This document shows positions 17,268 to 43,076 of a DNA stretch of 43,102 nt, in pieces (position 1 is the first letter of the stretch; every line of letters begins with the position of its first letter). The translations under genes and the position numbers were made by a program. Origin of the DNA: Thermoleophilia bacterium (GTDB lineage: Bacteria; Actinomycetota; Thermoleophilia; RBG-16-64-13); contig JBBRDB010000002.1 of the NCBI GenBank assembly GCA_038204345.1, positions 1-43,102 of the forward strand, in the 5' to 3' direction. The notes below the pieces were generated by a model. It had not been told where the DNA came from, ran no database searches, and saw only the letters and a program-made list of their open reading frames with translations.

Positions 17268-17286
17268 GATCGCTCCCCCCTTGAAC

Positions 17287-18420: not shown

Positions 18421-18435
18421 CCGCTCTCGTCCGCT

Positions 18436-24122: not shown

Positions 24123-24213
24123 CCGCACCGGTCGTCGACGGCGCCCCGGTCCGTCGGCCTGGGGGCAGCGATGCGTCCCGAGCGAGCGGCGTGAAGGAAG
24201 AGAGGAGAACGCA

Positions 24214-25473
24214 GTGTACATCGACGTGCCCTGGGACACAGCCTCGGTTCCGGTGAGGATCGACGAGTCACGCCTCGGCGAGGTGGTAGAGTCGCGCACC
24301 GTCAAAGTGCGTGACGAGGCCATGCTCATCGACGACCTCCTCGCGGGGGGCGACGGCCAACCATCGTTCGACGACTTCCTGAGCGCCACTCAGGGCACCA
24401 TCCTCGTCCTCGTCAACGACGCTACGCGCCCCACCCCCAGCGGCCGCGTGATCGAGATCATCGCCGACCGATTCAAGGGCCGGCATGTGGAGTTCCTGGT
24501 GGCTACAGGATCACACAAGGTGCCGGGGGAGACGGAGTTGGAGCAGATCTTCGGCCGCGCCATGCGCGAGCGCTTCCTTGACCGCATCTCGAGCCATGAC
24601 GCGCGAAACCAGGACGATCTCGTCCACCTCGGCGAGACCTCGCGCGGCACGCAGGCGTGGGTGAACCGCCGCCTGGCGGAGGCCACCGACGTACTGTTGA
24701 TCAACTCAGTGGAGCCCCACTACTTCGCGGGCTACACCGGCGGGAGGAAGTCGATCTTCCCCGGAGTGGCGGGCTTCGAGACCATCCAGGGAAACCACAA
24801 ACTGGCCCTCGACCCGGCTGCCGACAACCTGGCCCTCGAGGGTAACCCGGTGCACGAAGACCTGATGGAGATGATGGGCATGCTCTCGGAGAAGCGCATG
24901 TATTCCATCCAGATGGTGCTCGACCACCAACACCGCATCCACATGGCCTTCGCCGGAGGACTGGAGGAGAGCTGGCGCGCGGCGGTGGAGCACGCCGACG
25001 GTCACTACGTGGTTGAACTGTCCCAGCGCTACGACATCGTCGTGGCGGCCGCTCCGTACCCCATGGACTACGACCTCTATCAGTCGCAGAAGGCCCTGGA
25101 GAACGGCTCCCTGGCGCTGAAGGACGGAGGCATCCTCATCCTGGTGTCCAAGTGTCGCCACGGCATCGGCCCCGAGACGTTCTTCAACTTGATGGCCAAG
25201 GCCGCCACCCCCGAGGAGGTGCTCACTTCCATCGCCGGAGATTACGTCCTTGGCTACCACAAGGCCGGACGGCTCGCCCTGATCGCCCAGCGGGGCGAGA
25301 TGTGGGGGGTCACCGACCTCCCCGAGGAGGAGTTGGATGCCGCCTTCATCCGCCCCTTCCCCAGCGTCCAAAAGGCGGTAGACGCGGCCCTGGCGCGCAA
25401 GGGCCCCAAGGCCAAGGTACTCTTCCTCATGGATGCGTCTATCACGGTGCCCCGGGTGAACGGAGCACCATGA
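24214..25473 (+). CDS. larA: Nickel-pincer-dependent lactate racemase family protein (LarA homolog)
   Basis: VNDATRPTP, ATGSH, EPHYFAGYTGGRKSIFPG, GNH, DLYQSQKAL, GYHKA motifs of the LarA family; exact substrate not determinable. Confidence 0.9.
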   Translation: MYIDVPWDTASVPVRIDESRLGEVVESRTVKVRDEAMLIDDLLAGGDGQPSFDDFLSATQGTILVLVNDATRPTPSGRVIEIIADRFKGRHVEFLVATGSHKVPGETELEQIFGRAMRERFLDRISSHDARNQDDLVHLGETSRGTQAWVNRRLAEATDVLLINSVEPHYFAGYTGGRKSIFPGVAGFETIQGNHKLALDPAADNLALEGNPVHEDLMEMMGMLSEKRMYSIQMVLDHQHRIHMAFAGGLEESWRAAVEHADGHYVVELSQRYDIVVAAAPYPMDYDLYQSQKALENGSLALKDGGILILVSKCRHGIGPETFFNLMAKAATPEEVLTSIAGDYVLGYHKAGRLALIAQRGEMWGVTDLPEEELDAAFIRPFPSVQKAVDAALARKGPKAKVLFLMDASITVPRVNGAP

Positions 25474-27628: not shown

Positions 27629-27726
27629 CGGCGGACGCCCCGGCCGGCTTGACTGCGAGGAGGCCCTTCCGGGTCGAAAGAATGGTGGCCGGAGGCAGAC
27701 CGGGCCGGACACTCGGGAGGGTCGTC

Positions 27727-28038
27727 ATGGCGAAGTCGAGCTACGAGCACTGTCCCTCGGATGTCCCCTTCCTCGGAGAGACGATCGGGGATTGTCTGGA
27801 GCGCGCGGCACGCGAGCACCCGAACAGTGAGGCGCTCGTGAGCAGGCACGAGGGAATACGCCTCTCCTACGCCGAGATGCTGAACCTGGTGGACAGGCTG
27901 GCATGCGGGCTCCTGGCCTCGGGCATCGAGATAGGAGACCGGGTGGCGGTGTGGTCCACGAACAACCACGCGCGGGTAGAGGCGAGTTCCCTGGAATCGG
28001 CTGACACCACCGGGCGCCACCCACTGCCTCGGCGCTGA
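27727..28038 (+). pseudogene. Truncated AMP-binding (acyl-CoA synthetase) gene, N-terminal fragment only
   Basis: SY.H.PSDVPFLGETIGD...EALVSRH.GIRLSY...GDRVAVWSTNN, then similarity is lost and a stop follows after about 100 aa; family members are typically over 500 aa. Confidence 0.85.
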
Positions 28039-28070
28039 GCCGGGCGGGAGGTGCTGCTCCGGCACGGCGG

Positions 28071-28241
28071 TCACCCGACGACCCAGTACGCGAGCAGGAC
28101 GAGTGAAGCCACGCCCCACGCCACGATCACGACTGCGATGGCGACTTCGATCCTGATGAGCAAGGCCATTTGGTCACCTATGGCCTTCAGTTGCGCCTCG
28201 ACAGCATGGAGTTGGGTCGATGTCTGTTCTTCGGTGCTCAC
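28071..28241 (-). CDS. Small (56 aa) C-terminally anchored membrane protein
   Basis: Below the ORF-track cutoff; GTG 4 nt after the dehydratase stop; MSTEEQTSTQLHAVEAQLKAIGDQMALLIRIEVAIAVVIVAWGVASLVLLAYWVVG. Confidence 0.6.
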   Translation of the reverse strand: MSTEEQTSTQLHAVEAQLKAIGDQMALLIRIEVAIAVVIVAWGVASLVLLAYWVVG

Positions 28242-28245
28242 TGCC

Positions 28246-29331
28246 TTATCGCGCCGCCCCGTCGTCGCTGCCTCTCTTTTTGTGGTCGGACCCCCGAGGA
28301 GCCGCCAGCGCCGCCACCTCGGTCAGATGTATGCTCCCGCCCGACACCACGCAAACCACCTTGCCGGCGCCTGCGCCGCCGGACAGGGCGCATGCCACCG
28401 GACAGGCGCCCGCGCCCTCGGCTATCACGTGGTTGCGCTCGGCCATCAGCAGCACCGCGTCCGCGACGGCCTCCACCTGCTCAACCAGGCTCCCCGCCAC
28501 CAGCGAACGGGCCCGCTCGAACATCTGCGGGAAGACAGTGGGGCTGCCGATGCCATCGACGAAGGAGGGCGTGTAGTCGATTTCGACCGGCTTCCCCGCC
28601 GCAAGGGCGGCGGCCAGGGGGGCGGCTCCCGCCACCTCGGCCGCGTAGACCCGGCACTCAGGACGCAGAGCGTGGGCGGCGGCGGCCACTCCGCAGGTGA
28701 GCCCGCCGCCGCCCCAGGGGGTGAGGATGGCGTCGGCATCGGGCAGGTCCTCCAGGATCTCGAGGGCGATGGTGCCGTTGCCCGCCATGACCCGGGGATC
28801 GTCGAACGCGTGGATGAAGACGCCCTCCACACCGGGATAGGCGTGCTCCTCGAAGGCACGCCACCACTCCGCGAAGGGCACCCGGAGCACGCGACCGCCC
28901 AACTTCTCCACGGCATCGGTCTTGACCTTAGGCGCAGACTCGGGCGCGACGACGGTGCAAGGGATCCCGTGTTCACGGGCCAGCCACGCGACTCCCTGGG
29001 CCATGTTGCCCGCGGAGGCGGTCACCACACCCTGGGCCAATTCCGCGGGGTCTGTGCCCGCCATGACGGCGGCGGCCCCTCGTATCTTGAAAGAGCCTAT
29101 GGGCTGCAGGTTCTCGAGCTTCAGGTAGATCTCGGGCCCGTCGCCGCGCGCTCGGGTGGCGTCTAAGCGCACAAGGGGCGTGCGAATAGCGGTCGCGCCG
29201 CCGGGCGGGCCGATGATGGCCGCGCGCGCGGCCTGGATGTCCGCCAGCGTGGGGAGACCGGCGGCGTAGTGCGGTCGCCCGGCATCGTGCGGGCCGCCGT
29301 GGCCCGCGAGACCAACGTCCGGCGTCACCAC
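28246..29331 (-). CDS. PLP-dependent serine/threonine dehydratase family enzyme (no regulatory domain)
   Basis: LKLENLQPIGSFKIRGA (PLP Lys), TASAGNMAQG, PWGGGGL, EGAGA, VVSGG. Confidence 0.93.
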   Translation of the reverse strand: MVTPDVGLAGHGGPHDAGRPHYAAGLPTLADIQAARAAIIGPPGGATAIRTPLVRLDATRARGDGPEIYLKLENLQPIGSFKIRGAAAVMAGTDPAELAQGVVTASAGNMAQGVAWLAREHGIPCTVVAPESAPKVKTDAVEKLGGRVLRVPFAEWWRAFEEHAYPGVEGVFIHAFDDPRVMAGNGTIALEILEDLPDADAILTPWGGGGLTCGVAAAAHALRPECRVYAAEVAGAAPLAAALAAGKPVEIDYTPSFVDGIGSPTVFPQMFERARSLVAGSLVEQVEAVADAVLLMAERNHVIAEGAGACPVACALSGGAGAGKVVCVVSGGSIHLTEVAALAAPRGSDHKKRGSDDGAAR

Positions 29332-29335
29332 GCCC

Positions 29336-30316
29336 TCACGTCCTCACCCACGTGCCCACCTCCTCGTCGCAGGCCCGAGAGCACACGTACGCGGCCGCGG
29401 CCACGTCCTCTATGCCGATGCCCAACGACTTGAAGAGCGTCACTTCGTCCGCCGACGAGCGCCCGGGACGCATGCCGGCCAGGACCTCGCCGAGCGTGCC
29501 CCGAACGTGCTCGGGCCCGATGGCCCCTTCCGCTACGGCCGCCATGTACTCTCCCGACTCGTTCTCGGCGGCAACCCGATCGTCGAGGAACAACGCCGCG
29601 CGCGAAATCGCTTCGACGTCCACCTCGTTCGCTCCCGGACCTCCAATCACGTTGACGTGGGCTCCCGGGACGAGCCAGGCGCCCCGCAACACGGGGGACG
29701 TTGCCGTCGTCGCCGTCACCACCAGGTCGGCCCCCTGGACCGCCTCCTCGACACTCGACACGGGGTCGATAGGGAAGGAGAACCTCTCACCGTGCTCTTT
29801 CGCGAAACGGCGGGCCGTGTCACCCGTACGAGACACGACCCGCACCCGGCGGAGGTCCCGCACCAGAGCCATGGCGTCAAGGTGGTATGCGGCCTGCACT
29901 CCCGCACCGATGAGGGCGAGGTCTCCAGCATCCTCTCGCGCAAGGAGCCGGGTGGCCACGGCTGAGACCGCCGCAGTCCGGATTCCAGTGAGCGCCGACG
30001 CGTTCACCACTGCCCGAACCTCGCCGGTCCTGGGGCTTAGAAGCAGCACCGCCCCTTGATGCGAATCGATGCCGCGTTCCTGGTTGCCCGCGAACACCCC
30101 GATGACTTTGACGCCTAACGAGGGCGTCTCGCCGCCAAGATACGCCGGCATCAGTCCCATCAAGCCCGCCGCCTTTTCGGGAGCCACCACCGACCGCAAT
30201 GGTAGGCACGCCTCGCCCCGGGCAAGAACACTGAGCGCCTCCTCCATGACGGGCATGCACTCTTCGATCGAGAGCAGGCGCTCCACATCGCGATCGTCGA
30301 GTACAAGCAGCTCCAC
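29336..30316 (-). CDS. Ornithine cyclodeaminase/mu-crystallin family (imine reductase-like)
   Basis: GLMPAY, GVKVI..F..N, SHQG, LTGIRTAAVSA, GAGVQA, LFKSLGIGIEDVAAA; GTG 30316 after AGGAGG. Confidence 0.93.
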   Translation of the reverse strand: MELLVLDDRDVERLLSIEECMPVMEEALSVLARGEACLPLRSVVAPEKAAGLMGLMPAYLGGETPSLGVKVIGVFAGNQERGIDSHQGAVLLLSPRTGEVRAVVNASALTGIRTAAVSAVATRLLAREDAGDLALIGAGVQAAYHLDAMALVRDLRRVRVVSRTGDTARRFAKEHGERFSFPIDPVSSVEEAVQGADLVVTATTATSPVLRGAWLVPGAHVNVIGGPGANEVDVEAISRAALFLDDRVAAENESGEYMAAVAEGAIGPEHVRGTLGEVLAGMRPGRSSADEVTLFKSLGIGIEDVAAAAYVCSRACDEEVGTWVRT

Positions 30317-30324
30317 GGAGCCTC

Positions 30325-31317
<993 letters not shown>

Positions 31318-31363
31318 GAGACCTCTCTTCGTGCTCTCCCGGAACGACCGGCTTCTCCTGTGT

Positions 31364-32149
31364 TCACGTGGTACGCGCCGTACCCGCCACGCCTGCCGCT
31401 CGGGCAACCGTCTCCGAAGGCCCGCAGCGCATGAGGTCGAGACCACCGCTCAAAAGCTCGTCTTTGGACCGGCGCACGTGCAGGAGTGTCTGACGCGCGG
31501 CGCCTTCGGCCTCGCGCGCCTCGATCGCGGCGAGTATGGCCCCATGGTCGGCCACCACCCGGGCGACCCTAGAAGGCAGCGCCATGACCGCCTTGCGTGC
31601 ATCGAGCACGTGATCTTCGAGATCGTTCAAGATGCGGGCGATGATCTGATTGCCGCCGGCTTCACGTATGGTCCGGTGGAAAGCGCTGTCCGCCGCGACA
31701 AGCGCGGCATGATCGCCGGCTTCTATCGCCTCTGTCATCGCTTCTAGGTGGCCCCCAAGCGCGGCAAGCTCCTCGGGAGTTATTCGGAGAGCCGCGAGTT
31801 CGGATACTTTGACCTCGAGCGCCTCGTGCACCTCCAGGATCTGCACCACTTCCTGTCGGTGGCCCAGCAGCCACGCATACCAGTCCTCGGCCAGCGAGAC
31901 GACCTGACGTTCGCAGACGAAGGTTCCTCGACCGGGGGCCACACGCAGCACGCCGGTGGTCTCGAGAGTGCGAATAGCTTCGCGCAGGGACGTTCGGCTC
32001 ACCGACAGCAACTCCATCAATTCCCGTTCAGGCGGGAGCTTGGCCCCCGGGGCCAATGTTCCCTCAGACACGAGTTTCTGGATCTGCTCCTTCGCCCCGT
32101 CCGAGATGCGACGAGGTTTGACTGGGTTGAATATCTTGTTCACCGGCAA
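31364..32149 (-). CDS. FadR/GntR family transcriptional regulator
   Basis: KLPPERELME.L.VSRTSLREAIRTLE..G wHTH; FCD domain D..FH...GN...H..I..AI. Confidence 0.95.
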   Translation of the reverse strand: MPVNKIFNPVKPRRISDGAKEQIQKLVSEGTLAPGAKLPPERELMELLSVSRTSLREAIRTLETTGVLRVAPGRGTFVCERQVVSLAEDWYAWLLGHRQEVVQILEVHEALEVKVSELAALRITPEELAALGGHLEAMTEAIEAGDHAALVAADSAFHRTIREAGGNQIIARILNDLEDHVLDARKAVMALPSRVARVVADHGAILAAIEAREAEGAARQTLLHVRRSKDELLSGGLDLMRCGPSETVARAAGVAGTARTT

Positions 32150-32156
32150 TGCGCCA

Positions 32157-34817
<2,661 letters not shown>

Positions 34818-34826
34818 GGCTGCTCC

Positions 34827-35735
34827 TCAGACCTTCACGGGGATCTGCCTGCCCAACAGTCCGGCGGGCCGGAAGAGGAGCAGGACGATGAGCAGACCGA
34901 ACGCGATGACGTCCCGGTAGGCGTACGAGATGTACGTGGCACCCAAGGTCTCTGCACTCGCCAGGATCAATGCACCGAGCACCGCCCCGCGGAGATTGCC
35001 GATGCCGCCCAAGACTGCAGCCGTAAAGGCCTTCATGCCCAGACCGAAGCCCATGGCGAAGTCCACCTGAGTGTAGTACAGGCCGGTCAGCACGCCCCCG
35101 ATGCCCGCCAACATGGCGCCCACCAGGAACGTGATGGAGATTACCCTATTGACCGAGATGCCCATGAAGGACGCGGCTTCGCGGTCCTGCGCGGTGGCCC
35201 GCATCGCCTTGCCCATCTTACTGCGGTTCATGAAGATCTCCAGGCCGATGAGGGTGATCACCGTCACAACCACGACCACGACCCGGCTCGCCGAGACCGT
35301 CACATCGCCGATGTGCAGAGCCCAGGAGTCGGGGAGCAGCAGATCGGTGCGGACTGGGCGGGCCCGGAACTTGGTGATCACGCCTACGATATTTCGCAAC
35401 AGTATCGACATGGCGAGCGCGCTGATAAGAGGAGCTAAACGGGCCGCGTTGCGCAGAGGCCGGTAAGCGAAGAACTCGATCAAGACGGCGAGCACGCCGC
35501 ACACGGTCATCGCAGTGATAAGCATTAGGACGATGATGAGGATGGGGTTCGCCGTGAGCTGATCGTTTTGCAGGAACTGCTGCTGGACGACGTACCCCAT
35601 GAACCCACCGATCATGAAGACCTCGCCGTGGGCGAAGTTGAGCATGGTCAGTATCCCGTACACCATGGAGTAGCCCAGGGCGAACAGTGCATACACTGAG
35701 CCGAGCGTGAGCGCGTTGACGATCTGCTGAGTCAT
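34827..35735 (-). CDS. livH: Branched-chain amino acid ABC transporter permease
   Basis: GSVYALFALGYSMVYGI..MLNFAHGE, GKAMRATAQD, KAFTAAVLGGIG. Confidence 0.95.
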   Translation of the reverse strand: MTQQIVNALTLGSVYALFALGYSMVYGILTMLNFAHGEVFMIGGFMGYVVQQQFLQNDQLTANPILIIVLMLITAMTVCGVLAVLIEFFAYRPLRNAARLAPLISALAMSILLRNIVGVITKFRARPVRTDLLLPDSWALHIGDVTVSASRVVVVVVTVITLIGLEIFMNRSKMGKAMRATAQDREAASFMGISVNRVISITFLVGAMLAGIGGVLTGLYYTQVDFAMGFGLGMKAFTAAVLGGIGNLRGAVLGALILASAETLGATYISYAYRDVIAFGLLIVLLLFRPAGLLGRQIPVKV

Positions 35736-35827
35736 GTGTGAACTACCCTCCCCTGGTCGAGACGGTTGCCTAGGCCATCTCGGCGACCGCGGCCTCTGGG
35801 GCTCGCACGCCGCGCTCCCCCGCTGGT

Positions 35828-35860
35828 CCCGGCTGCGGCGGCGAAGCCGCCGCAGCCGGG
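35828..35860. other. Perfect 15-bp GC hairpin between the binding-protein gene and livH
   Basis: CCCGGCTGCGGCGGC-GAA-GCCGCCGCAGCCGGG. Confidence 0.85.
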
Positions 35861-35884
35861 GCTGATACTACTGGCCGACCCTCC

Positions 35885-37108
35885 TTACTGCAGAGTCACC
35901 ATTTTCACCGGAACGAACTCGGTGCCCTTCACTTGGAGAACGGTGATCCCACCACCCACCAGGTCACCCTCAGGAGTGAACGCGATTGGGAAGCCAAGGA
36001 TGCCGTTGTAGTTCGATGCGCTGAGCGCATCGTTCACTGCGGCGCGGTCCACCTTGCCGTCAACGACGCCCACGGTCTTTATCGCTTCGAGCAGCACGTT
36101 GGTCGCCTCGTAGGACTGAGCGGTGAACGCGCTCGTCACCTGGTACTTGGCAACGTACTTGTCGAGGAACGGCTTAGCCGAATCCAATGTCTCGGGCAGA
36201 GGACCAAGGACGGTGGAGTACATGCCTTCCGTCGCCCCGCCGGCCGCCGTCATGAGTTCCGGGTCGTGGGTGCCGTCGGCTCCCATCATCTGGATCTGGA
36301 AGCCCATGCTCTTCATCTGCTTCGCGATGGCCGCTGCTTGAGGCGGGCTCGGAAGTGGGGTGAAGAGGAGGCTGGGATTCATGTCCTTGACCTGCGTCAG
36401 GACAGTCGCGAAGTCCTTGTCCGCGCCCGCGATCTGGGCGCGCTTGACGGTCACGTTCCCATCCTTCAACGCCGTCTCTACTTGGTCGGCTAAGCCCTTG
36501 GAATACGCCTCACCGTCATCGATGATGAAGACGCTCTCGACATTGAGGTCGTCGATCATGTACTTGGCGATCGAGGGACCCTGCACGGCGTCACTCGGGT
36601 TGACTCGGTGGAACACCGGGAAGCCGAGCGTGGACAAGTTGACCGCGGTGGCGGACTGAGTGATCTGGGCTAGATTAGCTTCGTCCAGGATCGGCAGTGC
36701 AGCCTGGACCGCGCCGCTGGTCATAGGGCCTACAACACCCACGACAGACTCGTCGGAGGCGAACTTCTCAGCAATCGTGGCGGCCTTGGCCGGGTCGGCA
36801 CCGTCATCGCCCACTTCGACCGTGAAGGTCACGCCGGGCATGGCTCCCGAGGCGTTGAAGTCTTCGACGGCCATTTGGACGGCTTGAAGTGCGTCGGTGC
36901 CGATCTTGGCGAGATCACCCGTGAACGGACCGGCGCCGCCGATCTTGAGAGTCACGGCCTCACCGGGCGCCATGGTCGTATCCGAACCGCCTGTTGTGTC
37001 GCTTCCCGCTGCCGTGGTGGTCGTGGTGTCGCCGCCGCAGGCCGCGAGCGCGAGCCCGACGATCATGAGAAGCGCCAGCACCACCACCAGATTCCTTGAT
37101 ACCTTCAC
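35885..37108 (-). CDS. Branched-chain amino acid ABC transporter substrate-binding lipoprotein (LivK/LivJ-like)
   Basis: Signal peptide with lipobox LAAC, Thr-rich linker, KIG.AGP.TG, GDDGADP, VVGP.TSG, D...Y..GLA; GTG 37108 after GAGGGGG. Confidence 0.93.
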   Translation of the reverse strand: MKVSRNLVVVLALLMIVGLALAACGGDTTTTTAAGSDTTGGSDTTMAPGEAVTLKIGGAGPFTGDLAKIGTDALQAVQMAVEDFNASGAMPGVTFTVEVGDDGADPAKAATIAEKFASDESVVGVVGPMTSGAVQAALPILDEANLAQITQSATAVNLSTLGFPVFHRVNPSDAVQGPSIAKYMIDDLNVESVFIIDDGEAYSKGLADQVETALKDGNVTVKRAQIAGADKDFATVLTQVKDMNPSLLFTPLPSPPQAAAIAKQMKSMGFQIQMMGADGTHDPELMTAAGGATEGMYSTVLGPLPETLDSAKPFLDKYVAKYQVTSAFTAQSYEATNVLLEAIKTVGVVDGKVDRAAVNDALSASNYNGILGFPIAFTPEGDLVGGGITVLQVKGTEFVPVKMVTLQ

Positions 37109-37242
37109 TGCGTGTACCCCCTCGTCCGTGAACACATCACGTCGTAGGAATTGTCAAGACTCAACCCTCTCCCTTGTGCCCGTTGACCCTCAGCCCTCCC
37201 TTCCTCGATCGAGTATCACGATGCCCGGCGCGCAACCGCACG

Positions 37243-37629
37243 CTACCCGGCCGCCCGACAGACCGCCGATACTTCCACCAGTACGTCTTTGGGCAGGCGA
37301 GCCACCTCGACGGTCTCGCGAGCGGGCGGTGACTCCACAAAAAAGCGGCCGTACACCTCGTTGAACACCGCAAAGTCGTTCATGTCGGCCAGGAAACACG
37401 ATGTCTTCACCACGTCGGCCAAAGTGCCACCGGCCGCCTCGATCACCGCCCGGAGGTTGAGCAGCACACGTTGGCTCTGCTCCGCTATACCGCCCCCCAC
37501 GACCGCGCCGGTCGTGGGCTCAAGTGGTATCTGGCCGCTAAGGAAGACCAAGCCGCCGGAGCGGACCGCCTGAGAATAGGGCCCAATGGCCGCCGGTGCT
37601 CGATCCGTGCTGATGATCTCTTTGCTCAT
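37243..37629 (-). CDS. ridA: RidA family enamine/imine deaminase
   Basis: APAAIGPYSQAV, SGQIPL, VVKT..FL.DMNDF..FN.VY..FF...PPARETVEVARLPKD..VE (conserved Arg present). Confidence 0.93.
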   Translation of the reverse strand: MSKEIISTDRAPAAIGPYSQAVRSGGLVFLSGQIPLEPTTGAVVGGGIAEQSQRVLLNLRAVIEAAGGTLADVVKTSCFLADMNDFAVFNEVYGRFFVESPPARETVEVARLPKDVLVEVSAVCRAAG

Positions 37630-37654
37630 CGCTCTCCCATTCTCGGCGACTCCC

Positions 37655-38869
37655 TCACGCATTCGCCGACAGATCATGTTCCAACACGGCCTGCAGAGCA
37701 TCCAGAGCCACGTCGATATCGCTGATGGTGTTGTAGAAATGGGGCGCCAGCCGGATGACGGGCCCGCGGGCCGCCGCCAGGACGCCGCGCTTCAGCAGCA
37801 GCGCCTCCACGGTGTGGGATCCGTGTTCGGGGCAGACGAACGCGGTGCTGGGGGTCTTGCGCGCGGGGTCGTCGATGCCGTGGAGGCGCAAACCACGTGC
37901 CCGACCCCCCTCGATGAGTCGCCGAGTGAGCTGCTGCGTCCAGGCCACGATCGCGTCCGCCCCGATCTCGTTGATCACGGCCATACCGGCACGCGAGATG
38001 TATGCGTTGATGACGGGCGGGGTGCCGGTGTCGAAACGGGCGGCGGTGGGCGCCCAGTCGAGCGCGCGAGCGTCGAAGGAGAACGGGTTTGCTCGGCCGA
38101 ACCAGCCGGTGACGGCAGGTTCGAAACGCTCCACGATGCCGGGCCGCACGTAGAGGAAAGCGATGCCCGGTACGCCCAGCAAGAACTTGAGATTGCCGGA
38201 GGCAAGGAAGTCGATGTCCATGGCCTGCACATCCACCTTGGTCACGCCCAGACTCTGGTAGGCATCGACGTACAGGAGGGCCCCTTTGTCATGAGCCTTG
38301 CGGGCGATGGCCGCTACATCCTGGAGATAGCCGTTCTGATAGTAGGCATGAGAAGCGGACACCAGCAGCGTCCGCTCGTCGATGAGGTCATCGTAGTCCT
38401 CGAGGTGCACGATATCGTCGCGCACCGGGACCCAGTCGAGTTCGAGGCCGTACTTGGCGTGCGCCTGCCAGACATGGGCCACCGACGGGAATTCAGCCTC
38501 TGTCGTCACCACTCTGCGCCGCTCACCCGAAAGATCCAAGGAGCTCGCCAGACTGGCCGTCGCCTCGGAAACAGAACTCGATACGGCGACATCGTCGGGA
38601 GAAGCGTTGATGAGCCGAGCGAACTCCACCTTGGCCCTGTAGGTCTCGGCCATCCAGGCGTCCCAGTCCATTCCTGCGCGGTTCCAGGAGTCCAGGTACG
38701 CTTCGGCGGCCTCTCGCGTGACGTCGAGCTGCGGGGCCTGCGAGCAGTTGTTCAGGGGGATCATCGACCCGAGGATAGGGATGCGGCGACGCCACGCCTG
38801 AATATCGTACGTGGGCTCGCGGGTTGTCCGGCCGCCCACGATCCCGACATCTCCGGTGACATTGCTCAC
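37655..38869 (-). CDS. Class V PLP-dependent enzyme (kynureninase/cysteine desulfurase-like)
   Basis: LNNCSQAP, EFPSV, DAYQSLG, SGNLKFLLG.PG (PLP Lys), GWFG, RFDTGTP, IRLAPHFYNT; GTG 38869 after GAGGGG. Confidence 0.9.
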   Translation of the reverse strand: MSNVTGDVGIVGGRTTREPTYDIQAWRRRIPILGSMIPLNNCSQAPQLDVTREAAEAYLDSWNRAGMDWDAWMAETYRAKVEFARLINASPDDVAVSSSVSEATASLASSLDLSGERRRVVTTEAEFPSVAHVWQAHAKYGLELDWVPVRDDIVHLEDYDDLIDERTLLVSASHAYYQNGYLQDVAAIARKAHDKGALLYVDAYQSLGVTKVDVQAMDIDFLASGNLKFLLGVPGIAFLYVRPGIVERFEPAVTGWFGRANPFSFDARALDWAPTAARFDTGTPPVINAYISRAGMAVINEIGADAIVAWTQQLTRRLIEGGRARGLRLHGIDDPARKTPSTAFVCPEHGSHTVEALLLKRGVLAAARGPVIRLAPHFYNTISDIDVALDALQAVLEHDLSANA

Positions 38870-38945
38870 GGACCGACCCCTCATCCCCGATGACGCGATT
38901 TCGGCCGGAATCGGCCCCAATGGTTGCACCTTGTTCTCACCGCCC

Positions 38946-38996
38946 GTGGTCGGCAGGTTGGACCACACAATACGATAGGCAGAAGGTCCTTGTCAA
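38946..38996 (-). promoter_or_regulatory. Promoter TTGACA-18 nt-TATTGT with adjoining operator GTGGTC-N9-GACCAC
   Basis: -35 at 38991-38996, -10 at 38967-38972, palindrome at 38946-38966. Confidence 0.8.
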
Positions 38997-39001
38997 TACT
39001 T

Positions 39002-40042
39002 TCACGAACTCCGCAAGACTTCTCTGGCCGCGTCGAGAGCGACTCCGATCCCGGCGGCATCGACATCTTTATGCGTGACGAAACGTACACGCCGAGCGCC
39101 AACCGCCCCCCCACGGACGCCGAGGGTCTCCAGCCGTGCCACCAGACCGGGCCCGTCCAGGCCCGGCGCCGCTACGTCCACGAAGACCATGTTGGTCTGG
39201 ACGGCCTCCAGATCCACCTCCAAGCCGGGGATCTCCGCCAACCCCTCGGCCAGCCGCTGAGCATGTGCATGGTCGTCGGCCAGGCGATCCACCATCGTCT
39301 GGAGAGCCACTATGCCGGCCGCCGCCAGGACGCCCGCCTGGCGGAGTCCACCCCCAAGCAGCTTGCGCGCGCGACGCGCCTCGGAGATCCACTCAGCCCG
39401 ACCGGCCAACATCGAGCCCACCGGAGCGCAGAGACCCTTGGACAAACAGAACATGATCGAATCGACCGGGGCGGCGATGGCGGCGGCAGACACGCCCAAC
39501 GCCGTGGCCGCGTTGAACACGCGGGCGTCGTCAAGGTGAATAGCCAGACCGCCTGCGCGGGCGGTAGCACAGAGATCGGCCATCAACTCCGGCGACGCCA
39601 CAGTGCCTCCGCCGAAGTTGTGCGGGTTCTCGAGACAGAGGAGCCGGGAACGGGGGAAGTGCACGTCTTCCGGCCGGATGGCGGCCTTCACCTGCTCGGA
39701 CCGGAGCATGCCTTTCACGCTCTCCAAGGGCCGAGCTTGGACGCCGGACAGAACGGCCAGACCACCCACTTCGGCGTCGTAGATATGCGAGGACCTGTCG
39801 CAGATCACCTCGTCGCCGCGGCCGGTGTGGGTGAGCACTGCGACGCCGTTGCCCATGGTGCCGCTGGGGACGAAAAGGGCCGCTTCCTTGCCCATCCTCT
39901 CGGCGGCCATCTCCTCCAGCCGGCGAACGGTCGGGTCTTCTCGGTACACGTCGTCTCCGAGCTCGGCCGTCCCCATCGCCCGCAACATCTCGGCGGTGGG
40001 CAGGGTGACGGTGTCGCTGCGCAGATCGACGATGCTCATCAC
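39002..40042 (-). CDS. ltaE: Low-specificity L-threonine aldolase family enzyme
   Basis: DLRSDTVT.P, GDDVYREDPTV, FVPSGTMGN, LENPHN..GG, CLSKGLCAPVGS (PLP Lys), GGGLRQAG, RFVTH. Confidence 0.92.
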   Translation of the reverse strand: MMSIVDLRSDTVTLPTAEMLRAMGTAELGDDVYREDPTVRRLEEMAAERMGKEAALFVPSGTMGNGVAVLTHTGRGDEVICDRSSHIYDAEVGGLAVLSGVQARPLESVKGMLRSEQVKAAIRPEDVHFPRSRLLCLENPHNFGGGTVASPELMADLCATARAGGLAIHLDDARVFNAATALGVSAAAIAAPVDSIMFCLSKGLCAPVGSMLAGRAEWISEARRARKLLGGGLRQAGVLAAAGIVALQTMVDRLADDHAHAQRLAEGLAEIPGLEVDLEAVQTNMVFVDVAAPGLDGPGLVARLETLGVRGGAVGARRVRFVTHKDVDAAGIGVALDAAREVLRSS

Positions 40043-41925
40043 GATCCGGCGTCCTCCGCGGCCGTCGATGCCAGCCCGAGTTCGGCCAACTTGTCAGGAA
40101 GAGGCAGACCGGTGACCAGATCCCAACCCCGAGCCTCGTAGTACTCGTCGAGCATCTGGTCGAGATCCACCACGGAGCCCGCCGACGGGTTATCGGCCGG
40201 GCCTAGGGGCTCTTTCAGGAAGCGACGAGGCAGGGTGTCGTCTGCGCGGGTGATACCTTCCCGGGCGATGAAAAGCCGCTCCAGGTTGACGATGCGCTCG
40301 CCCGCCTGCCGCACCTCCTCGCCCGTCATATCCCACCCGGTGGAGGCGTTCAGCAGGTCGGCGGTCTCCTGCCAGTCGAGCACTTCCATGTTGTTGTAGG
40401 TGTTCTTGCAGACCCCGAGAGAGTCGCAGACGGCGGCCATCTCCTCGAAGTGCTTCACCACCCGGCCCTTGCCTTTGTGCTCGAGGCGGAAGGCCGACTC
40501 GGCCGCACCGTAACGACGGATGCCCTCCTCGGCGTCACCGGAGAACTCGAACCAGGGCTCGGAGCGCAGGTGGTCGGCACCTCGGCTGGCCACGGCGTTC
40601 CCGAGGGCATAGGCCTTGATCGCGCGCGGGTCGGACTGGAACACCTCGAGACCCTTTGCGTGCATGGCTATCTCTTCCGAGCCGCCACCCACCCGCTCGG
40701 CGGCGGCGCGCACCCCGTCGGCGAGCACGTCGCCGAAGCCTTCGCGACGCATGATCTTGTCCATGAGCGCGAAGATCGACTCCTGATTCCCCCAGGAGAG
40801 GTCGAGGCCGTCGGTGTCGGCGGGAGTGAGGATGCCGCGTTGTTGGCATTCCATGGCCCAGGAGATGACCTCAGTGAGCGTGATCGCATCCATACCATAG
40901 CGGTTGGCCAGGTCCACGCACCGAAGGCCGAAAGCCAGGTCGCCGTTGCCGATGCGTGCGGTGAAGCCGGCCAGAGGTTCATACTCCGGTCCCTCGAGCT
41001 TGAGCCCGGGGAAACGAGGATCGTCTATGACCAGGAAGCGGCTGCAGGGGATGGTGCAGGAGAAACACGCCTTACTCTTCATCTTGAAGCGCGCTTCGAT
41101 CGTCTCTCCACTCACCTGGTCGGCATACTCGAAGAGCCCGCTCTGGAAATGTCTGGTGACCATGCCGCCGATGCCGTCCAGGGCTTTCATCAACTTCGTG
41201 GTGCCCAAACGGACACGCACCTCGTACTCGTCATGGGAGTAGATGCGATCGTCGACCATGTCGATGAGTTGCCGGAAGCGGGCCATGTCGAATACAGGCA
41301 CCATGCCGGTGCCCCGTACGGCCACAGCCTTGAGGTTCTTCGAGGCCATGACGGATCCCATGCCGGTTCGGGCGGCCGCGCGCACGAAGTTGGAGAAGAC
41401 CCCGGCAAAACGCACTCCGTTCTCCGCGGCGGGGCCGATCACCGCGGCTTGTACGTCGCGATCGCCCAGTCGGGCGCGGATGGCCTCGGTGGCCTCCGTC
41501 ACGTCCAATCCCCAGATACCGTCGGCATCGCGGATCTCCACGCGGCCGTCGGTGAGACTCAGGAACACGGGCCGCTCCGCGCGACCCTCCACGATGAGCT
41601 GGTCGACGCCCGCGAACTTGAGCTCGGGCCCGAAGAATCCGCCGGCGTTGGAGTCGCCCAGGATACCGGTCTGCGGCGACATGCCGCTCACGTTGAAGCG
41701 GGATCCGCCGGGAAAGAGCGAACCCACCAAGGGGCCCACCCCGAAGATCACCTTGTTCTCGGGAGCGAGCCCGTCGAGGTGGGCGGGCACCTCGTCCCAG
41801 AGGCGCTTCATGTTGAGGCCGCGGCCGCCGAGGAAGGCCCGCGCCTCCGCCGGGTCGGTAGGCTCCCAGCTGACGGAGCCGGTGGTGAGGTCCACCCGCA
41901 CGATGCTGCCGCCGTAACCGTTCAT
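40039..41925 (-). CDS. Aldehyde:ferredoxin oxidoreductase (AOR family, W/Mo-pterin)
   Basis: GY.G.I.RVDLT, LGGRGL, SPQTG..GDSNAGG.FG..LKFAG.D, AARTGMG.VM.SKNLKA, CFSCTIPC, GPEYE, GMDAI, SRGADH, DSLGVC, YY.ARGWD. Confidence 0.96.
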   Translation of the reverse strand: MNGYGGSIVRVDLTTGSVSWEPTDPAEARAFLGGRGLNMKRLWDEVPAHLDGLAPENKVIFGVGPLVGSLFPGGSRFNVSGMSPQTGILGDSNAGGFFGPELKFAGVDQLIVEGRAERPVFLSLTDGRVEIRDADGIWGLDVTEATEAIRARLGDRDVQAAVIGPAAENGVRFAGVFSNFVRAAARTGMGSVMASKNLKAVAVRGTGMVPVFDMARFRQLIDMVDDRIYSHDEYEVRVRLGTTKLMKALDGIGGMVTRHFQSGLFEYADQVSGETIEARFKMKSKACFSCTIPCSRFLVIDDPRFPGLKLEGPEYEPLAGFTARIGNGDLAFGLRCVDLANRYGMDAITLTEVISWAMECQQRGILTPADTDGLDLSWGNQESIFALMDKIMRREGFGDVLADGVRAAAERVGGGSEEIAMHAKGLEVFQSDPRAIKAYALGNAVASRGADHLRSEPWFEFSGDAEEGIRRYGAAESAFRLEHKGKGRVVKHFEEMAAVCDSLGVCKNTYNNMEVLDWQETADLLNASTGWDMTGEEVRQAGERIVNLERLFIAREGITRADDTLPRRFLKEPLGPADNPSAGSVVDLDQMLDEYYEARGWDLVTGLPLPDKLAELGLASTAAEDAGS

Positions 41926-42620
41926 TCCCGACCCCCTCTTGCCGGGCCGCTTGCCGCCGCCGGATCGCCGCCCGCGGTGTCGCACTCCGAGGAGGCTGCC
42001 GGCACGACCCTCGCGGCGCCGGGGCTCCTGCCACGGCCGGGCGGCCGGTTCGCCCGGAAGACCGCGGGCGACACGCCGGACGCGCCCACAGGTTCCCGAT
42101 CGGCAGTCGTCTCAGTGCCGAGCCCTGCTATCGCTCTACGATCGTCGTCGAGTTGACGAAGAGCCAGGTTCTCGCGCCGTTCGCGGGCCGGTTCGTCCGC
42201 GCCGCCCCAACGGATGGCGCCGGGCGCGCAGCGCTTCACACATTCAGGATCCCCGCCGCACAGGTCGCAGATGAGCGGCAGCCCGTCGGAGGGACGCATG
42301 GTCACCATCCCGAACGGGCACCCGTCGGCGCAGGAGCCGCAGGCGATGCACAACTCCTCGTCGAGGCGCATCACACCCAAGACGTCGTCACGCACCAGGG
42401 CGCCGGTAGGACAGGCGGCCGCGCAGCCTGGTCGATGGCACAATCGGCAGACCGACGGAACGTCCAATCCCTCAGTTTCGATTTTCGTCACCTTTATGCG
42501 GGACAGGGCGGAGCCGAACCCACCTTCGTGGCCGGCCACGCAGGCCAGCGTGCAGGCCCGGCACCCACTGCAGATCTCGCTTCGCACCAGGATCCGCGCC
42601 TGGCGTGTGCCCGTGCTCAC
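41922..42620 (-). CDS. 4Fe-4S dicluster electron-transfer subunit associated with AOR
   Basis: CSGCRACTLAC, CRLCHRPGCAAACP, CIACGSCADGCP, CDLCGGDPECVKRC; GTG 42620 after AGGAGG; ATGA overlap with the AOR gene. Confidence 0.93.
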   Translation of the reverse strand: MSTGTRQARILVRSEICSGCRACTLACVAGHEGGFGSALSRIKVTKIETEGLDVPSVCRLCHRPGCAAACPTGALVRDDVLGVMRLDEELCIACGSCADGCPFGMVTMRPSDGLPLICDLCGGDPECVKRCAPGAIRWGGADEPARERRENLALRQLDDDRRAIAGLGTETTADREPVGASGVSPAVFRANRPPGRGRSPGAARVVPAASSECDTAGGDPAAASGPARGGRE

Positions 42621-42668
42621 GTGTGCCCTCCTGATCGTGCCGGCGGCAGTCGTACCGCCCGTAGCTGC

Positions 42669-42718
42669 GTGGTCCAAACATCGGACCACAGAATAGTAGC
42701 CGTATACAGGCGTGTCAA
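42669..42718 (-). promoter_or_regulatory. Promoter TTGACA-17 nt-TATTCT with adjoining operator GTGGTC-N9-GACCAC
   Basis: -35 at 42713-42718, -10 at 42690-42695, palindrome at 42669-42689. Confidence 0.85.
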
Positions 42719-42728: not shown

Positions 42729-43076
42729 ATGAAACCCGGTTTGGCCCGGCTCTTACGCACGACGCCGGGAGGACTCCTGCGCATAGACGCTGAGGCGGTC
42801 AAAGCGGAGGAGAAGCTCGACGGCAAGTATCTCCTGCGTTCAAGCGACCCTACCCTCTCCCCGGAGGACATCGCGCTCGGCTACAAGGAGCTACTCGAGG
42901 TGGAGCGGGGCTGGCGGGACATGAAGCACGTCCTCGATCTGCGGCCCGTCTACCACCGCAAAGAAGACCGCATCCAGGCCCATGTGCTCCTCTGCCGGCT
43001 CGCCCTCTTGCTCATCCGGGTAACAAACCCGCGTTACTTGCCGAGGGCGTCAGCGGGCCCCGAAGCTAGACGATGA
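42729..43076 (+). mobile_element. IS1634-family transposase remnant (C-terminal fragment)
   Basis: EEKLDGKYLLRSSDP.LS.EDIALGYK.LLEVERGWRDMK..LDLRPVYHR.EDRI.AHVLLC is typical of IS1634 C-termini; N-terminal part absent; similarity ends near 43023. Confidence 0.85.

Follow-up and report, generated by a model that had tools for sequence, protein, structure and literature searches.

A 43,102-nucleotide contig from an uncultured soil/sediment actinobacterium, analysed here over its entire length (the window) and belonging to a genome bin of 294 contigs, carries a set of twelve genes on the minus strand. Judged by sequence, this set appears to be pieced together from three reusable modules, not copied from the beta-hydroxyaspartate cycle. 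We lean towards an inducible two-unit regulon of these modules, repressed by its own GntR/FCD protein at a common operator, and the set would most likely import small amino acids and break them down via aldehydes. All twelve genes were recovered with Pfam and NCBIfam models between 28246 and 42620, in agreement with the co-oriented gene list of the initial annotation:

41922..42620, minus strand: 4Fe-4S protein, AorA-type (polyferredoxin-like) subunit; likely start GTG at 42620 after AGGAGG; Pfam Fer4 families
40039..41925, minus strand: aldehyde:ferredoxin oxidoreductase (AOR; tungsto/molybdopterin AOR family); longest ORF to 41985; AFOR_N 245 bits, AFOR_C 422 bits
39002..40042, minus strand: fold-type I PLP aldolase, L-allo-threonine/low-specificity threonine aldolase (GntG/LtaE) family; Beta_elim_lyase 346 bits
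37655..38869, minus strand: ClsV, class V-fold PLP enzyme of an uncharacterised kynureninase/SufS-like family; likely start GTG at 38869, 404 aa; ORF to 38968
37243..37629, minus strand: RidA (enamine/imine deaminase family); ORF to 37701; Ribonuc_L-PSP 136 bits; TIGR00004 165 bits (cut-off 106)
35885..37108, minus strand: Liv/HAAT-type periplasmic binding protein; ORF to 37135; Peripla_BP_6 181 bits
34827..35735, minus strand: LivH-type permease; BPD_transp_2 159 bits
32157..34817, minus strand: LivM-LivG-LivF fusion, one 886-aa protein (LivM 32-321, LivG 383-635, LivF 652-886)
31364..32149, minus strand: GntR-family regulator with FCD domain (FadR subfamily); GntR 72 bits, FCD 93 bits
30325..31317, minus strand: aldo-keto reductase (AKR); ORF to 31446; Aldo_ket_red 256 bits
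29336..30316, minus strand: OCD/mu-crystallin enzyme (ketimine/imine reductase or alanine-dehydrogenase type); ORF to 30370; Pfam and NCBIfam
28246..29331, minus strand: Ser/Thr dehydratase-type fold-II PLP enzyme lacking a regulatory domain; PALP 214 bits
27649..28038, plus strand: boundary fragment, 129 aa, matching only the first 60 positions of an AMP-binding domain
42735..43076, plus strand: boundary, C-terminal ORF fragment

The cluster is thus flanked on both sides by gene fragments; the one at 42735..43076, for which a Pfam search returned no match, has a translation that recalls a DDE transposase end and may be one. The final 141 bases of the window are also the first 141 of contig C152. 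Competing plus-strand ORFs (28051-29166, 33363-35438, 37586-38893, 38924-40141 and 40450-42156) gave no Pfam match.

Gene identities hold at family level, every cluster enzyme falling below the cut-offs of substrate-specific NCBIfam models. Among solved structures the Fe-S protein is closest to 8c0z_C, a bacterial AOR's Fe-S subunit (89.9 bits), and to the corresponding subunit of WOR5, and the AOR matches PDB 1aor over its full length (407 bits). The aldolase (NF041359, 450 bits vs cut-off 230; LtaE equivalog, 309.5 bits vs cut-off 312; 1jg8, 364 bits) is of the ordinary L-allo-threonine aldolase type. Its earlier assignment as LtaE-type stands, as does that of a FadR-type regulator with GntR and FCD domains, whose nearest named models (LldR, NanR, PdhR and GlcC) all score below cut-off. 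Among solved structures the AKR is closest to generic AKRs and the binding protein to LivJ (127 bits, aligned over the whole length), while the LivM-LivG-LivF fusion is a single unbroken match of equal extent in three related genomes (L001-L003), with an ORF of 885 aa in L001.

The twelve genes appear to be transcribed as two units, before each of which lies a promoter-like site followed by a palindrome:

42690..42718, minus strand: P1, promoter-like site TTGACA-17-TATTCT upstream of the Fe-S gene (10/12 matches)
42669..42689, no strand assigned: O1, 21-bp palindrome GTGGTC-N9-GACCAC abutting the -10 of P1
38967..38996, minus strand: P2, promoter-like site TTGACA-18-TATTGT between aldolase and ClsV
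38946..38966, no strand assigned: O2, 21-bp palindrome GTGGTC-N9-GACCAC abutting the -10 of P2

The promoter scan by itself is not above chance (3 sites vs 1.9 +/- 1.2 expected). The palindrome occurs twice in the window against 0.03 expected (0 of 100 shuffles gave at least two), each copy directly 3' of a TTGACA-17/18-TATTnT site. The degenerate motif is matched 10 times in the whole genome, and of these sites only O1 and O2 adjoin a -10-like hexamer. The promoter-plus-operator layout is found in L001-L005, ahead of ClsV and of either the Fe-S gene or AOR, with 0-2 mismatches. O1, with 1 mismatch, and the P1 layout are kept in L001 and L003; O2 is kept at the equivalent position in L001-L003, L005, L189 and L190 (0-2 mismatches), and the P2 layout recurs in L001, L005, L189 and L190. 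Promoter and operator also occupy the LtaE/ClsV intergenic regions of six genomes (G424, G553, G454, G558, G613 and G400). Since the operator is common to both units and kept in relatives, the set looks like one GntR-type regulon, which supports the original view of these genes as a functional unit. The GntR/FCD protein is the presumed binder of O1 and O2, from its position and the habit of its family.

The gene order recurs in three related genomes, with all 12 genes in L001 and L003 and 11 in L002, which is cut at a contig end (72-94% identity for 11 genes, 40-47% for the Fe-S protein), so the juxtaposition is not chance. The relatives compared are kin, and the counts that follow are therefore not independent events. 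Of 61 family genomes, 12 carry ClsV, and they fall in 6 of 19 genera; the aldolase adjoins it in 10 of the 12, and every ClsV locus examined beyond 4 kb has a GntR gene next to it. Seven of these genomes have AOR at most 10 kb from ClsV; in the other five it is not near the core. The AKR-OCD-dehydratase triad is independent, and in two ClsV genomes it is found by itself: G400 has three separate loci (ClsV-GntR-Liv-AOR, LtaE-GntR and the triad), and in G553 the triad is on a different contig from the core. This distribution suggests a conserved core of aldolase, ClsV, GntR and operator, to which the dehydratase/OCD part is a separable add-on. Because the triad occurs elsewhere away from any operator match (G400) or on another contig (G553), a dedicated twelve-step pathway is not what these genes seem to encode.

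From these families we infer the substrate and every reaction of the following model. Unit 1, from P1, would comprise Fe-S-AOR-aldolase, and unit 2, from P2, ClsV-RidA-Liv importer-GntR-AKR-OCD-dehydratase; the GntR/FCD repressor would shut both at the palindromic operator over the transcription start. The Liv-type ABC system would take up small alpha-amino acids, of which hydroxy-amino acids resembling threonine or serine are the most likely. In the core module (threonine-aldolase-type enzyme, ClsV and GntR), the aldolase would cleave a beta-hydroxy-amino acid to glycine and an aldehyde, and ClsV may form or use an amino compound linked to an aldehyde, either as a transaminase or through C-C chemistry of the kynureninase/UstD sort that yields alanine. 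A second module for aldehyde disposal (AOR and its AorA-type Fe-S subunit) would oxidise the aldehyde to the acid, with ferredoxin receiving the electrons through the Fe-S subunit; the AKR could instead reduce the aldehyde to the alcohol. In the third module, the AKR-OCD-dehydratase triad, the enamine/imine product of the dehydratase would be hydrolysed by RidA to a 2-oxo acid or reduced by the OCD enzyme. That the aldolase supplies aldehyde to AOR, as first proposed, is plausible: the same genome has a second locus of the form AOR-181 aa-LtaE. A link to aldehydes is also suggested by G454 and G553, in which a xanthine-dehydrogenase/aldehyde-oxidase-type molybdoenzyme follows LtaE-GntR, and by Gemmatimonadota homologues of ClsV (56-65% identical), which share operons with a split TPP enzyme resembling sulfopyruvate/phosphonopyruvate decarboxylase, likewise aldehyde-forming. 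Against this, no aldolase lies within 1.5 kb of AOR at any of the 29 further AOR loci sampled in the phylum.

In the reading of the initial annotation, all twelve genes would handle one and the same unusual beta-hydroxy amino acid in an undescribed pathway whose mechanism mirrors the beta-hydroxyaspartate cycle or EutABC: the aldolase, a class V aminotransferase, the dehydratase and an imine reductase would share a carbon skeleton. We regard this as unlikely, even though the common operator points to one regulon, an Asp/Glu-racemase-like gene (EutA-like family) is found in the cluster of G548 and G558 and adjoins LtaE in G400, and the regulator's nearest models LldR, PdhR and GlcC sense small 2-hydroxy/2-oxo acids, which would suit glyoxylate or pyruvate products. 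The dehydratase and OCD genes are neighbours here and again at 6 of the 29 other OCD loci sampled in the phylum, and AKR-linked OCDs form one clade; the pairing noticed earlier is confirmed, and the two are an evolutionarily linked, co-evolving pair, as would suit a dehydratase working with an imine reductase in the manner of BhcB/BhcD or EutB/EutC. Their scores, however, are far below those models: BhcB, BhcD, EutB and EutC give 173, 182, 195 and 200 bits, well under half of the cut-offs (550, 500, 413 and 472), and the NCBIfam cut-offs for TdcB and AlaDH are likewise far from reached. The dehydratase has ilvA_1Cterm as its best model (229 bits vs cut-off 379) and matches TdcB in the PDB with 153 bits, and the OCD enzyme is nearer to Pyr2C reductase (6t3e, 223 bits), archaeal AlaDH (191) and CRYM (183) than to BhcD (6rqa, 125). 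With an ordinary aldolase and a ClsV that is not AGXT/BhcA-like, the resemblance to the enzyme set of the beta-hydroxyaspartate cycle did not survive. Moreover, the triad stands amid unrelated genes in G400, G224 and G250 (BrkB, membrane proteins, an AlkZ-like glycosylase, a SNF2 helicase), and in G558 the operon appears to end at the AKR, with OCD absent nearby. Such neighbours favour instead a separate role for the triad, for example from serine/threonine to alanine/2-aminobutyrate or a 2-oxo acid, merely riding the P2 transcript in this genus and unrelated to the aldolase-ClsV-AOR chemistry. We consider this possible, if somewhat improbable. No operator lies near the triad in G400, G224 and G250 (L113-L115; in G400 at up to 1 mismatch), so its presence in the operon may be an accident of gene order and not shared chemistry, and the dehydratase is the sole Ser/Thr-dehydratase-type gene of the genome. 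Yet co-transcription behind the regulator is predicted here and in four relatives, with gaps of 4-46 nt, and in G197 an LtaE homologue lies two genes from OCD-dehydratase. The genome also encodes IlvC, a citramalate synthase over cut-off and ProC, so the triad is not needed for isoleucine or proline, and the role of the dehydratase would be catabolic rather than housekeeping.

Two further readings seem to us very unlikely. The set could run in reverse: AOR would draw on reduced ferredoxin to turn an acid into the aldehyde, which the aldolase would then join to glycine (or ClsV to alanine), giving a chain-extended hydroxy-amino acid. AOR and threonine aldolases are reversible enzymes. A precedent is UstD: as outlined in PMC11976203, this PLP enzyme forms gamma-hydroxy amino acids by the addition of an enamine to an aldehyde. 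Against such a biosynthetic direction, the importer, RidA, the dehydratase and the repressor-over-promoter layout are typical traits of catabolic operons, and product-handling genes (ligase, exporter, NRPS) are absent from the window. In the other reading ClsV, rather than being catabolic, would serve AOR as a SufS-like enzyme of sulfur transfer or cofactor maturation, acting in the sulfuration of its metal-pterin site or in Fe-S assembly. Type II cysteine desulfurases do rank first in its fold search (TM 0.85), SufS is its top NCBIfam score, and AOR is often nearby, as counted above. That score, however, is 114 bits against a cut-off of 475, the sequence motifs favour kynureninase, no cysteine is invariant or near-invariant among 32 aligned family members, and none occurs in the loop that aligns with the catalytic cysteine of SufS. 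In addition, the aldolase is a commoner partner of ClsV than AOR, and some 50 Gemmatimonadota ClsV loci are devoid of AOR in the stretch covered, up to 10 kb either side. ClsV belongs to an uncharacterised kynureninase/SufS-like family that lacks a conserved cysteine, and it is no aminotransferase of the BhcA/AGXT kind.

The window is one complete contig (C2) from a bin of 2.72 Mb in 294 contigs (64.5% G+C, 96% complete, 2.6% contaminated), and Pfam and NCBIfam searches placed twelve genes head to tail on its minus strand, at 28246-42620. In the order of transcription, these genes encode a 4Fe-4S protein, an aldehyde:ferredoxin oxidoreductase (AOR), an LtaE-type aldolase, a class V-fold PLP enzyme (hereafter ClsV), RidA, a Liv-type binding protein, LivH, a LivM-LivG-LivF fusion, a GntR/FCD regulator, an aldo-keto reductase (AKR), an OCD/mu-crystallin enzyme and a PALP enzyme of the Ser/Thr-dehydratase type. 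The same searches confirmed all of the families that the initial annotation had named for these genes, and gave no family match for the long plus-strand ORFs that overlap them. With likely start codons picked from ribosome-binding sites and from where orthologue alignments begin, the intergenic gaps measure -4 to 46 nt inside tight blocks; wider ones, of about 110-150 nt, are confined to the surroundings of the binding-protein gene. The 150-nt gap between this gene and livH holds a perfect G+C-rich hairpin (15-bp stem, 4-nt loop; 35828-35861, minus strand), by which the ratio of binding protein to transporter could possibly be set.

Fusion gene and boundary ORFs of the cluster (window coordinates)
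32157-34817, minus strand: fusion of LivM-type permease, LivG-type ATPase and LivF-type ATPase, 886 aa
42735-43102, plus strand: upstream boundary ORF fragment, C-terminal part, without Pfam match
27649-28038, plus strand: downstream boundary ORF, matching the first 60 positions of an AMP-binding domain only

The fusion of the three transporter parts is not a sequencing error, because it gives a single unbroken match of the same extent in each of three related loci (L001-L003) and is an 885-aa ORF in L001; in G400, a sampled relative, the counterparts are separate genes (360, 258 and 274 aa). Gene remnants flank the cluster on both sides, the upstream one presumably recalling a DDE transposase. 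Contig C152 opens with the same 141 bases with which the window ends, and tblastx of the window flanks against the short flanks of L001-L005 gave matches at noise level only.

A consensus scan of the minus strand detected two strong sigma-70-like sites, one before the Fe-S gene (42718-42690) and one in the gap between aldolase and ClsV (38996-38967), in a scan that is by itself not above chance (3 found vs 1.9 +/- 1.2 expected). Immediately after each of them lies a 21-bp palindrome, GTGGTC-N9-GACCAC (42669-42689 and 38946-38966). It has exactly 2 matches in the window, compared with 0.03 expected, and none of 100 shuffles held two. In degenerate form, the palindrome matches 10 times genome-wide, against a rough expectation of about 2.5 from base composition, and only two of the ten, the copies in the cluster, abut a -10-like hexamer. 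In L001-L005, the layout of promoter and palindrome recurs with 0-2 mismatches upstream of ClsV and upstream of the Fe-S gene or AOR; it is found likewise in the aldolase/ClsV intergenic regions of G424, G553, G454, G558, G613 and G400. The regulator combines an N-terminal GntR HTH (71.6 bits) with a C-terminal FCD domain (92.6 bits), both above cut-off. A palindrome that covers the transcription start and lies near a GntR/FCD gene is what one usually sees for a repressor with its operator. From this layout we infer two transcription units (Fe-S protein-AOR-aldolase, and ClsV to dehydratase) under one putative GntR/FCD repressor. A look-up of RNA runs for window 28246-38000 listed none.

The predicted AOR is a full-length member of its family, with 245 bits for AFOR_N (cut-off 30) and 422 bits for AFOR_C (cut-off 27), 407 bits to the archaeal enzyme 1aor over residues 22-639, and 321 bits to the bacterial 8c0z_A. 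The Fe-S protein is nearest to the Fe-S subunits of such enzymes (8c0z_C, 89.9 bits; the WOR5 subunit, 88.5). Of the parts of the three-subunit bacterial AorABC, a predicted AorA-like Fe-S subunit is encoded here, and no FAD-binding subunit of the AorC type was found in the cluster. What sets the present AOR apart from 8c0z and 1aor is its place inside an amino-acid operon, with the aldolase as the next gene. To judge from its sequence, this aldolase is of the ordinary L-allo-threonine/low-specificity threonine aldolase type (GntG/LtaE, fold I Beta_elim_lyase): it matches GntG/LtaE fold-I models only in Pfam and NCBIfam, with 364 bits to 1jg8, 450.1 bits for NF041359 (cut-off 230), and 309.5 bits for the LtaE equivalog, just under the cut-off of 312. 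RidA scores 165.3 bits with TIGR00004 (cut-off 106.25), and the AKR is similar to generic AKRs only. The importer is of the HAAT (Liv) type, with a Peripla_BP_6 binding protein, two BPD_transp_2 permeases and LivG and LivF ATPases (365.5 bits for the LivG model, cut-off 362). Its binding protein can be aligned to LivJ along the whole length (127 bits); among the LivJ positions with a functional role, Ser79, Thr102 and Tyr150 are kept, Glu226 is replaced by Asp, and other residues stand in place of Tyr18 and Tyr202 of the pocket. These residues would be compatible with an alpha-amino-acid ligand, short of proof.

The initial annotation had likened the cluster to the beta-hydroxyaspartate cycle, whose class V enzyme is BhcA, an AGXT-like aminotransferase. 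For the class V enzyme this likeness was not borne out: in models, solved relatives and fold, ClsV resembles SufS and kynureninase, and not an aminotransferase of the AGXT or BhcA kind. Its 21 NCBIfam matches are all of the desulfurase, kynureninase, EgtE or PhnW types, none above cut-off, and no aspartate-glyoxylate or alanine-glyoxylate aminotransferase model is among them. A cysteine desulfurase of the SufS/IscS kind is suggested by the best model (SufS, 114.4 bits, under the cut-off of 475.1) and by the predicted structure (pLDDT 92.6), whose closest fold is a type II SufS (TM 0.85) at 23-24% identity. The alignment of 32 family members, in which the PLP lysine K228, D202, Q205 and R373 are invariant, contains no invariant or near-invariant cysteine, and the ClsV loop that corresponds to the one with the catalytic cysteine of SufS has none either, which makes a desulfurase acting through a persulfide unlikely. 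Kynureninase is the best solved relative in sequence (1qz9, 86.7 bits, nearly full length), and the FP, KFLxGxPG and GWFG stretches of ClsV line up with 1qz9, not with SufS. The resemblance to kynureninase proper is at motif level only: model TIGR01814 gives 80.2 bits against a cut-off of 246.4, and KYNU_C was not detected at E 0.001. A true kynureninase with KYNU_C is encoded separately in the same genome, on contig C101. With kynureninase and SufS, ClsV shares the lysine and the aspartate of the PLP site and the arginine that binds the carboxylate; its overall fold is nearest to SufS. Its neighbours in the protein atlas are unnamed class V clusters of about 385-390 aa with up to 2,649 members, some of which carry KYNU_C.

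A beta-hydroxyaspartate-cycle or EutBC-like enzyme set had been proposed as a candidate, and of this proposal the resemblance stands and the membership does not. As in BhcABCD, a gene of the Ser/Thr-dehydratase fold adjoins an OCD-family gene, a couple that could act as dehydratase and imine reductase, and a PLP aldolase and a class V-fold enzyme are also present; dehydratase and OCD are likewise paired in EutABC. Every defining model, as compared by NCBIfam and PDB scores, is however under its cut-off. The dehydratase is nearest to TdcB/IlvA (TdcB, 153 bits in the PDB; ilvA_1Cterm, 229 of 379) and lies below all equivalog cut-offs, with 173.2 of 550 bits for BhcB (NF045641), where the IlvA, TdcB and EutB models score higher, 194.9 and 163.7 of 413 for EutB (NF005680 and TIGR02991), and 192 of 453 for TdcB. 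The best solved relative of the OCD enzyme is the archaeal Pyr2C reductase 6t3e (223 bits), followed by archaeal alanine dehydrogenase (191), CRYM (183) and BhcD (6rqa, 125), and it falls under the cut-off of every NCBIfam model, including EutC (TIGR02992, 199.7 of 471.65) and BhcD (NF045643, 181.9 of 500). The aldolase is of the LtaE type and fold-type I instead of the BhcC type, the regulator is GntR/FCD instead of the IclR-type BhcR, and AOR, AKR, RidA and the Liv importer are extra here. Unlike EutABC, the cluster has an importer of a different type and lacks a counterpart of EutA: no gene of the Asp/Glu/hydantoin-racemase family is among the twelve, although the relatives G548, G558 and G400 have one. 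No ectoine hydrolase or deacetylase gene was found among the 12 cluster genes and the 21 other window ORFs scanned. The predicted couple would work like BhcB/BhcD or EutB/EutC, but is a member of neither. The catabolic threonine operon has in common with the cluster that TdcB is the best solved relative of the dehydratase, that RidA (TdcF family) is present and that the aldolase belongs to the L-allo-threonine aldolase family, but the Tdc kinase and formate-lyase genes are absent. Compared with other LtaE systems, the aldolase would be coupled to a tungsten/molybdenum AOR, not to an aldehyde or alcohol dehydrogenase. As a whole, the cluster would work like known catabolic amino-acid operons.

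Loci in relatives and elsewhere in the genome
L155:9995-12760 (G400) and L188:16452-19223 (G454): AOR with C-terminal 4Fe-4S dicluster domain, 73% identical to each other
C43:12312-15484 plus C282:1-1089 (own genome; loci L121 and L122): second AOR-181 aa-LtaE locus
L004:11735-20655; L005:7705-8642 and 17045-18442: extra genes of the larger relative, among them a tryptophanase that scores 672 bits with the model of that subfamily
L026:8914-13536 and about 35 other loci: conserved ClsV operon of Gemmatimonadota, with TPP alpha/beta, ClsV, SNF-type symporter and PF04199

Gene adjacency in relatives was taken from tblastn coordinates. Co-occurrence in other genomes proved to be real but partial: the whole cluster is found in the same order in three actinobacterial bins (12 genes in L001 and L003; 11 in L002, which is cut at a contig end), with identities of 72-94% to the cluster genes (40-47% for the Fe-S protein), and elsewhere it falls into separable modules. 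In a census of the taxonomic family, own genome included, ClsV occurs in 12/61 genomes and 6/19 genera, which marks it as an accessory trait. In 10 of these 12, ClsV and the aldolase are neighbours, in tandem or divergent; of the remaining two, G400 has the genes at different loci, and the other assembly is in too many pieces for a verdict. A GntR/FCD gene accompanies them in every locus seen beyond 4 kb. AOR is within 10 kb of ClsV in seven of the 12 (the own genome, three of the same genus, G548, G400 and G454), and since the relatives are kin, such counts overstate independence.

The relatives show how the modules are rearranged. G400 has one locus with ClsV-GntR-Liv-AOR, a second with LtaE-GntR, a racemase-like neighbour and the operator, and a third with AKR-OCD-dehydratase amid unrelated membrane-protein genes. 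In both G400 and G454 the AOR and its Fe-S subunit are fused (921 and 923 aa; the fusion domains were shown for G454). Downstream of LtaE-GntR, G454 and G553 carry a molybdoenzyme of the xanthine-dehydrogenase/aldehyde-oxidase type with its FAD subunit; the gene of 733-811 aa before LtaE in G558 and G613, considered as an alternative aldehyde oxidase, is Tex, an unrelated housekeeping gene. The larger relative G548 (L004/L005/L081) begins with AOR-ClsV1 and a Dpp-type peptide ABC system, continues with an Asp/Glu-racemase-family gene, an S-Me-THD-like gene, an M19 dipeptidase, a nitroreductase and DUF6092, and ends with aldolase-ClsV2-RidA-Liv-tryptophanase-GntR-AKR-OCD-dehydratase. Its peptide uptake, dipeptidase, racemase and tryptophanase suggest a broad amino-acid/peptide island, not a pathway for one substrate.

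Besides the AOR of the cluster, the 2.7 Mb of this genome hold no fewer than seven loci of the AOR family (C51, C43, C209, C41, C55, C158 and C225), and in a phylum sample of 400 genomes plus the own one, AOR-family genes occur in 50/401. After one paralogue (714 aa, 31% identical) come an ORF of 181 aa that matches neither Pfam nor NCBIfam and a second LtaE (52% identical), in a locus read across the C43/C282 junction (425-nt overlap at 97.6%). A general rule of AOR-aldolase pairing was rejected: none of the 29 other AOR loci in the phylum sample has LtaE within 1.5 kb, and the pairing is therefore a speciality of this lineage.

A scan for ClsV with one genome per species returned 80 loci, the actinobacterial ones included. 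The homologues in Gemmatimonadota are 56-65% identical and stand without any of the actinobacterial partner genes. Their operons, counted over the 64/80 loci where gene calling placed ClsV, contain a split TPP enzyme like sulfopyruvate/phosphonopyruvate decarboxylase, whose N-part occurs in 21 loci and whose C-part occurs in 14. They also contain an SNF-type sodium symporter, in 35 loci, and a PF04199 protein of the cyclase/arylformamidase family, in 23, and sometimes a cupin. With an aldolase in Actinomycetota and a 2-oxo-acid decarboxylase-like enzyme in Gemmatimonadota, ClsV adjoins an aldehyde-releasing enzyme in both phyla.

The AKR-OCD-dehydratase triad has a distribution of its own. At E <= 1e-40, OCD homologues occur in 101 of the 401 genomes; among the best 29 OCD loci of other genomes, the dehydratase is adjacent in six, three of which have the AKR too, and LtaE lies two genes off in one. 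In a maximum-likelihood tree of 34 OCD sequences, the eight whose genes are linked to the AKR as well as the dehydratase group together in a single clade (support 90/95, not starred), and the linked/unlinked label requires 3 changes against a shuffled mean of 9.5; three 'alone' rows are from genomes flagged unpublished, and no result rests on these. Unrelated housekeeping genes flank the triad in G400, G224 and G250 and the pair in G268 and G095. The triad is on another contig in G553, OCD adjoins an AOR paralogue in G613, and the operon of G558 seems to end at the AKR. On account of the clade, the unrelated flanks and the separate loci, the dehydratase/OCD couple is real and co-evolving, in line with the initial annotation, yet a module of its own that has joined the operon in some genera only. 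In G197, a gene with a sulfite-oxidase/MsrP-like molybdopterin-binding domain (L118:10530-11168, minus strand) lies between an LtaE homologue and an OCD-dehydratase pair.

Biosynthetic roles for the couple were also weighed. The dehydratase is the sole gene of the Ser/Thr-dehydratase type in the genome. Citramalate synthase (661 bits vs 450), IlvC and ProC are all present, so the triad is unneeded for isoleucine or proline, and we rejected both the dehydratase as IlvA and the OCD enzyme as a proline route.

On balance, and going by gene content, we lean towards a role of the cluster in inducible import and aldehyde-routed breakdown of amino acids. An inducer would free both operators (O1 before the Fe-S gene, O2 between aldolase and ClsV) of the GntR repressor, and the Liv system would bring in small alpha-amino acids. 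The aldolase would cleave a beta-hydroxy-amino acid to glycine and an aldehyde, which may then be oxidised by AOR, with electrons passing through the Fe-S subunit to ferredoxin, or reduced by the AKR. The dehydratase would yield an enamine/imine for hydrolysis by RidA or reduction by the OCD enzyme, and ClsV might act on an aldehyde-linked amino compound. The simplest substrates are threonine, allo-threonine and serine, a choice that the sequences do not fix.

A bolder proposal, which we consider unlikely, is that ClsV represents a new aldehyde-acting class of class V-fold PLP enzymes and, together with the aldolase, feeds a tungsten AOR in an undescribed 'aldolase-to-AOR' fermentation under a GntR operator. 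ClsV would then be either a transaminase of the aldehyde/amine kind or a lyase like kynureninase and UstD, by which gamma-substituted amino acids are converted to alanine plus an aldehyde and back. Class V-fold enzymes that transaminate aldehydes are known (PhnW/AepZ), a retro-aldol side activity has been ascribed to kynureninase, and UstD is related to the desulfurases. In two reviews, 'retro-aldol' refers to tryptophan synthase or chlorobiocin, not to kynureninase. UstD (PMC11976203) is a PLP enzyme that joins an enamine and an aldehyde into gamma-hydroxy amino acids, with alanine as the protonation product. If the fermentation were true, anaerobic actinobacteria would gain reduced ferredoxin directly from hydroxy-amino acids.

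If the model of inducible import and aldehyde-routed breakdown holds, it would provide a lead on an uncharacterised PLP enzyme family that lies beside aldehyde-forming enzymes in two phyla, and would suggest what one AOR, out of the many paralogues in uncultured anaerobic soil and sediment actinobacteria, does for the cell, namely take up aldehydes from a PLP aldolase. BhcBD and EutBC would also be joined by another sort of dehydratase/OCD couple, the third, which is linked with an aldo-keto reductase. Nothing is overturned by this, as neither the enzyme families nor the operon logic nor the type of repressor is unfamiliar. The core of aldolase, ClsV, GntR and operator, its AOR attachment, the triad and the ClsV family appear to be undescribed in the open literature searched. 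Searches by title and abstract found nothing relevant that joins aldehyde ferredoxin oxidoreductase with threonine aldolase; those for BhcD/EutC with ornithine cyclodeaminase found nothing relevant, and those for kynureninase-like PLP proteins found none. Titles and abstract openings, with PMC13759103 checked in passages, revealed no gene cluster pairing OCD with threonine dehydratase or imine reductase.

Two further observations concern the remainder of the window. At 21021-25473 (plus strand) lie two genes that, by their appearance, form a pair for the use of lactate or 2-hydroxy acids and are convergent with the cluster. The first encodes a GlcD/GlcF-like protein of 1033 aa, in which FAD-linked oxidase, 4Fe-4S and CCG domains are fused, and the second a homologue of LarA-type lactate racemase. 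The contig with the AOR cluster also carries a gene of the MoeA type (12949-14274, minus strand), for metal insertion into molybdopterin.
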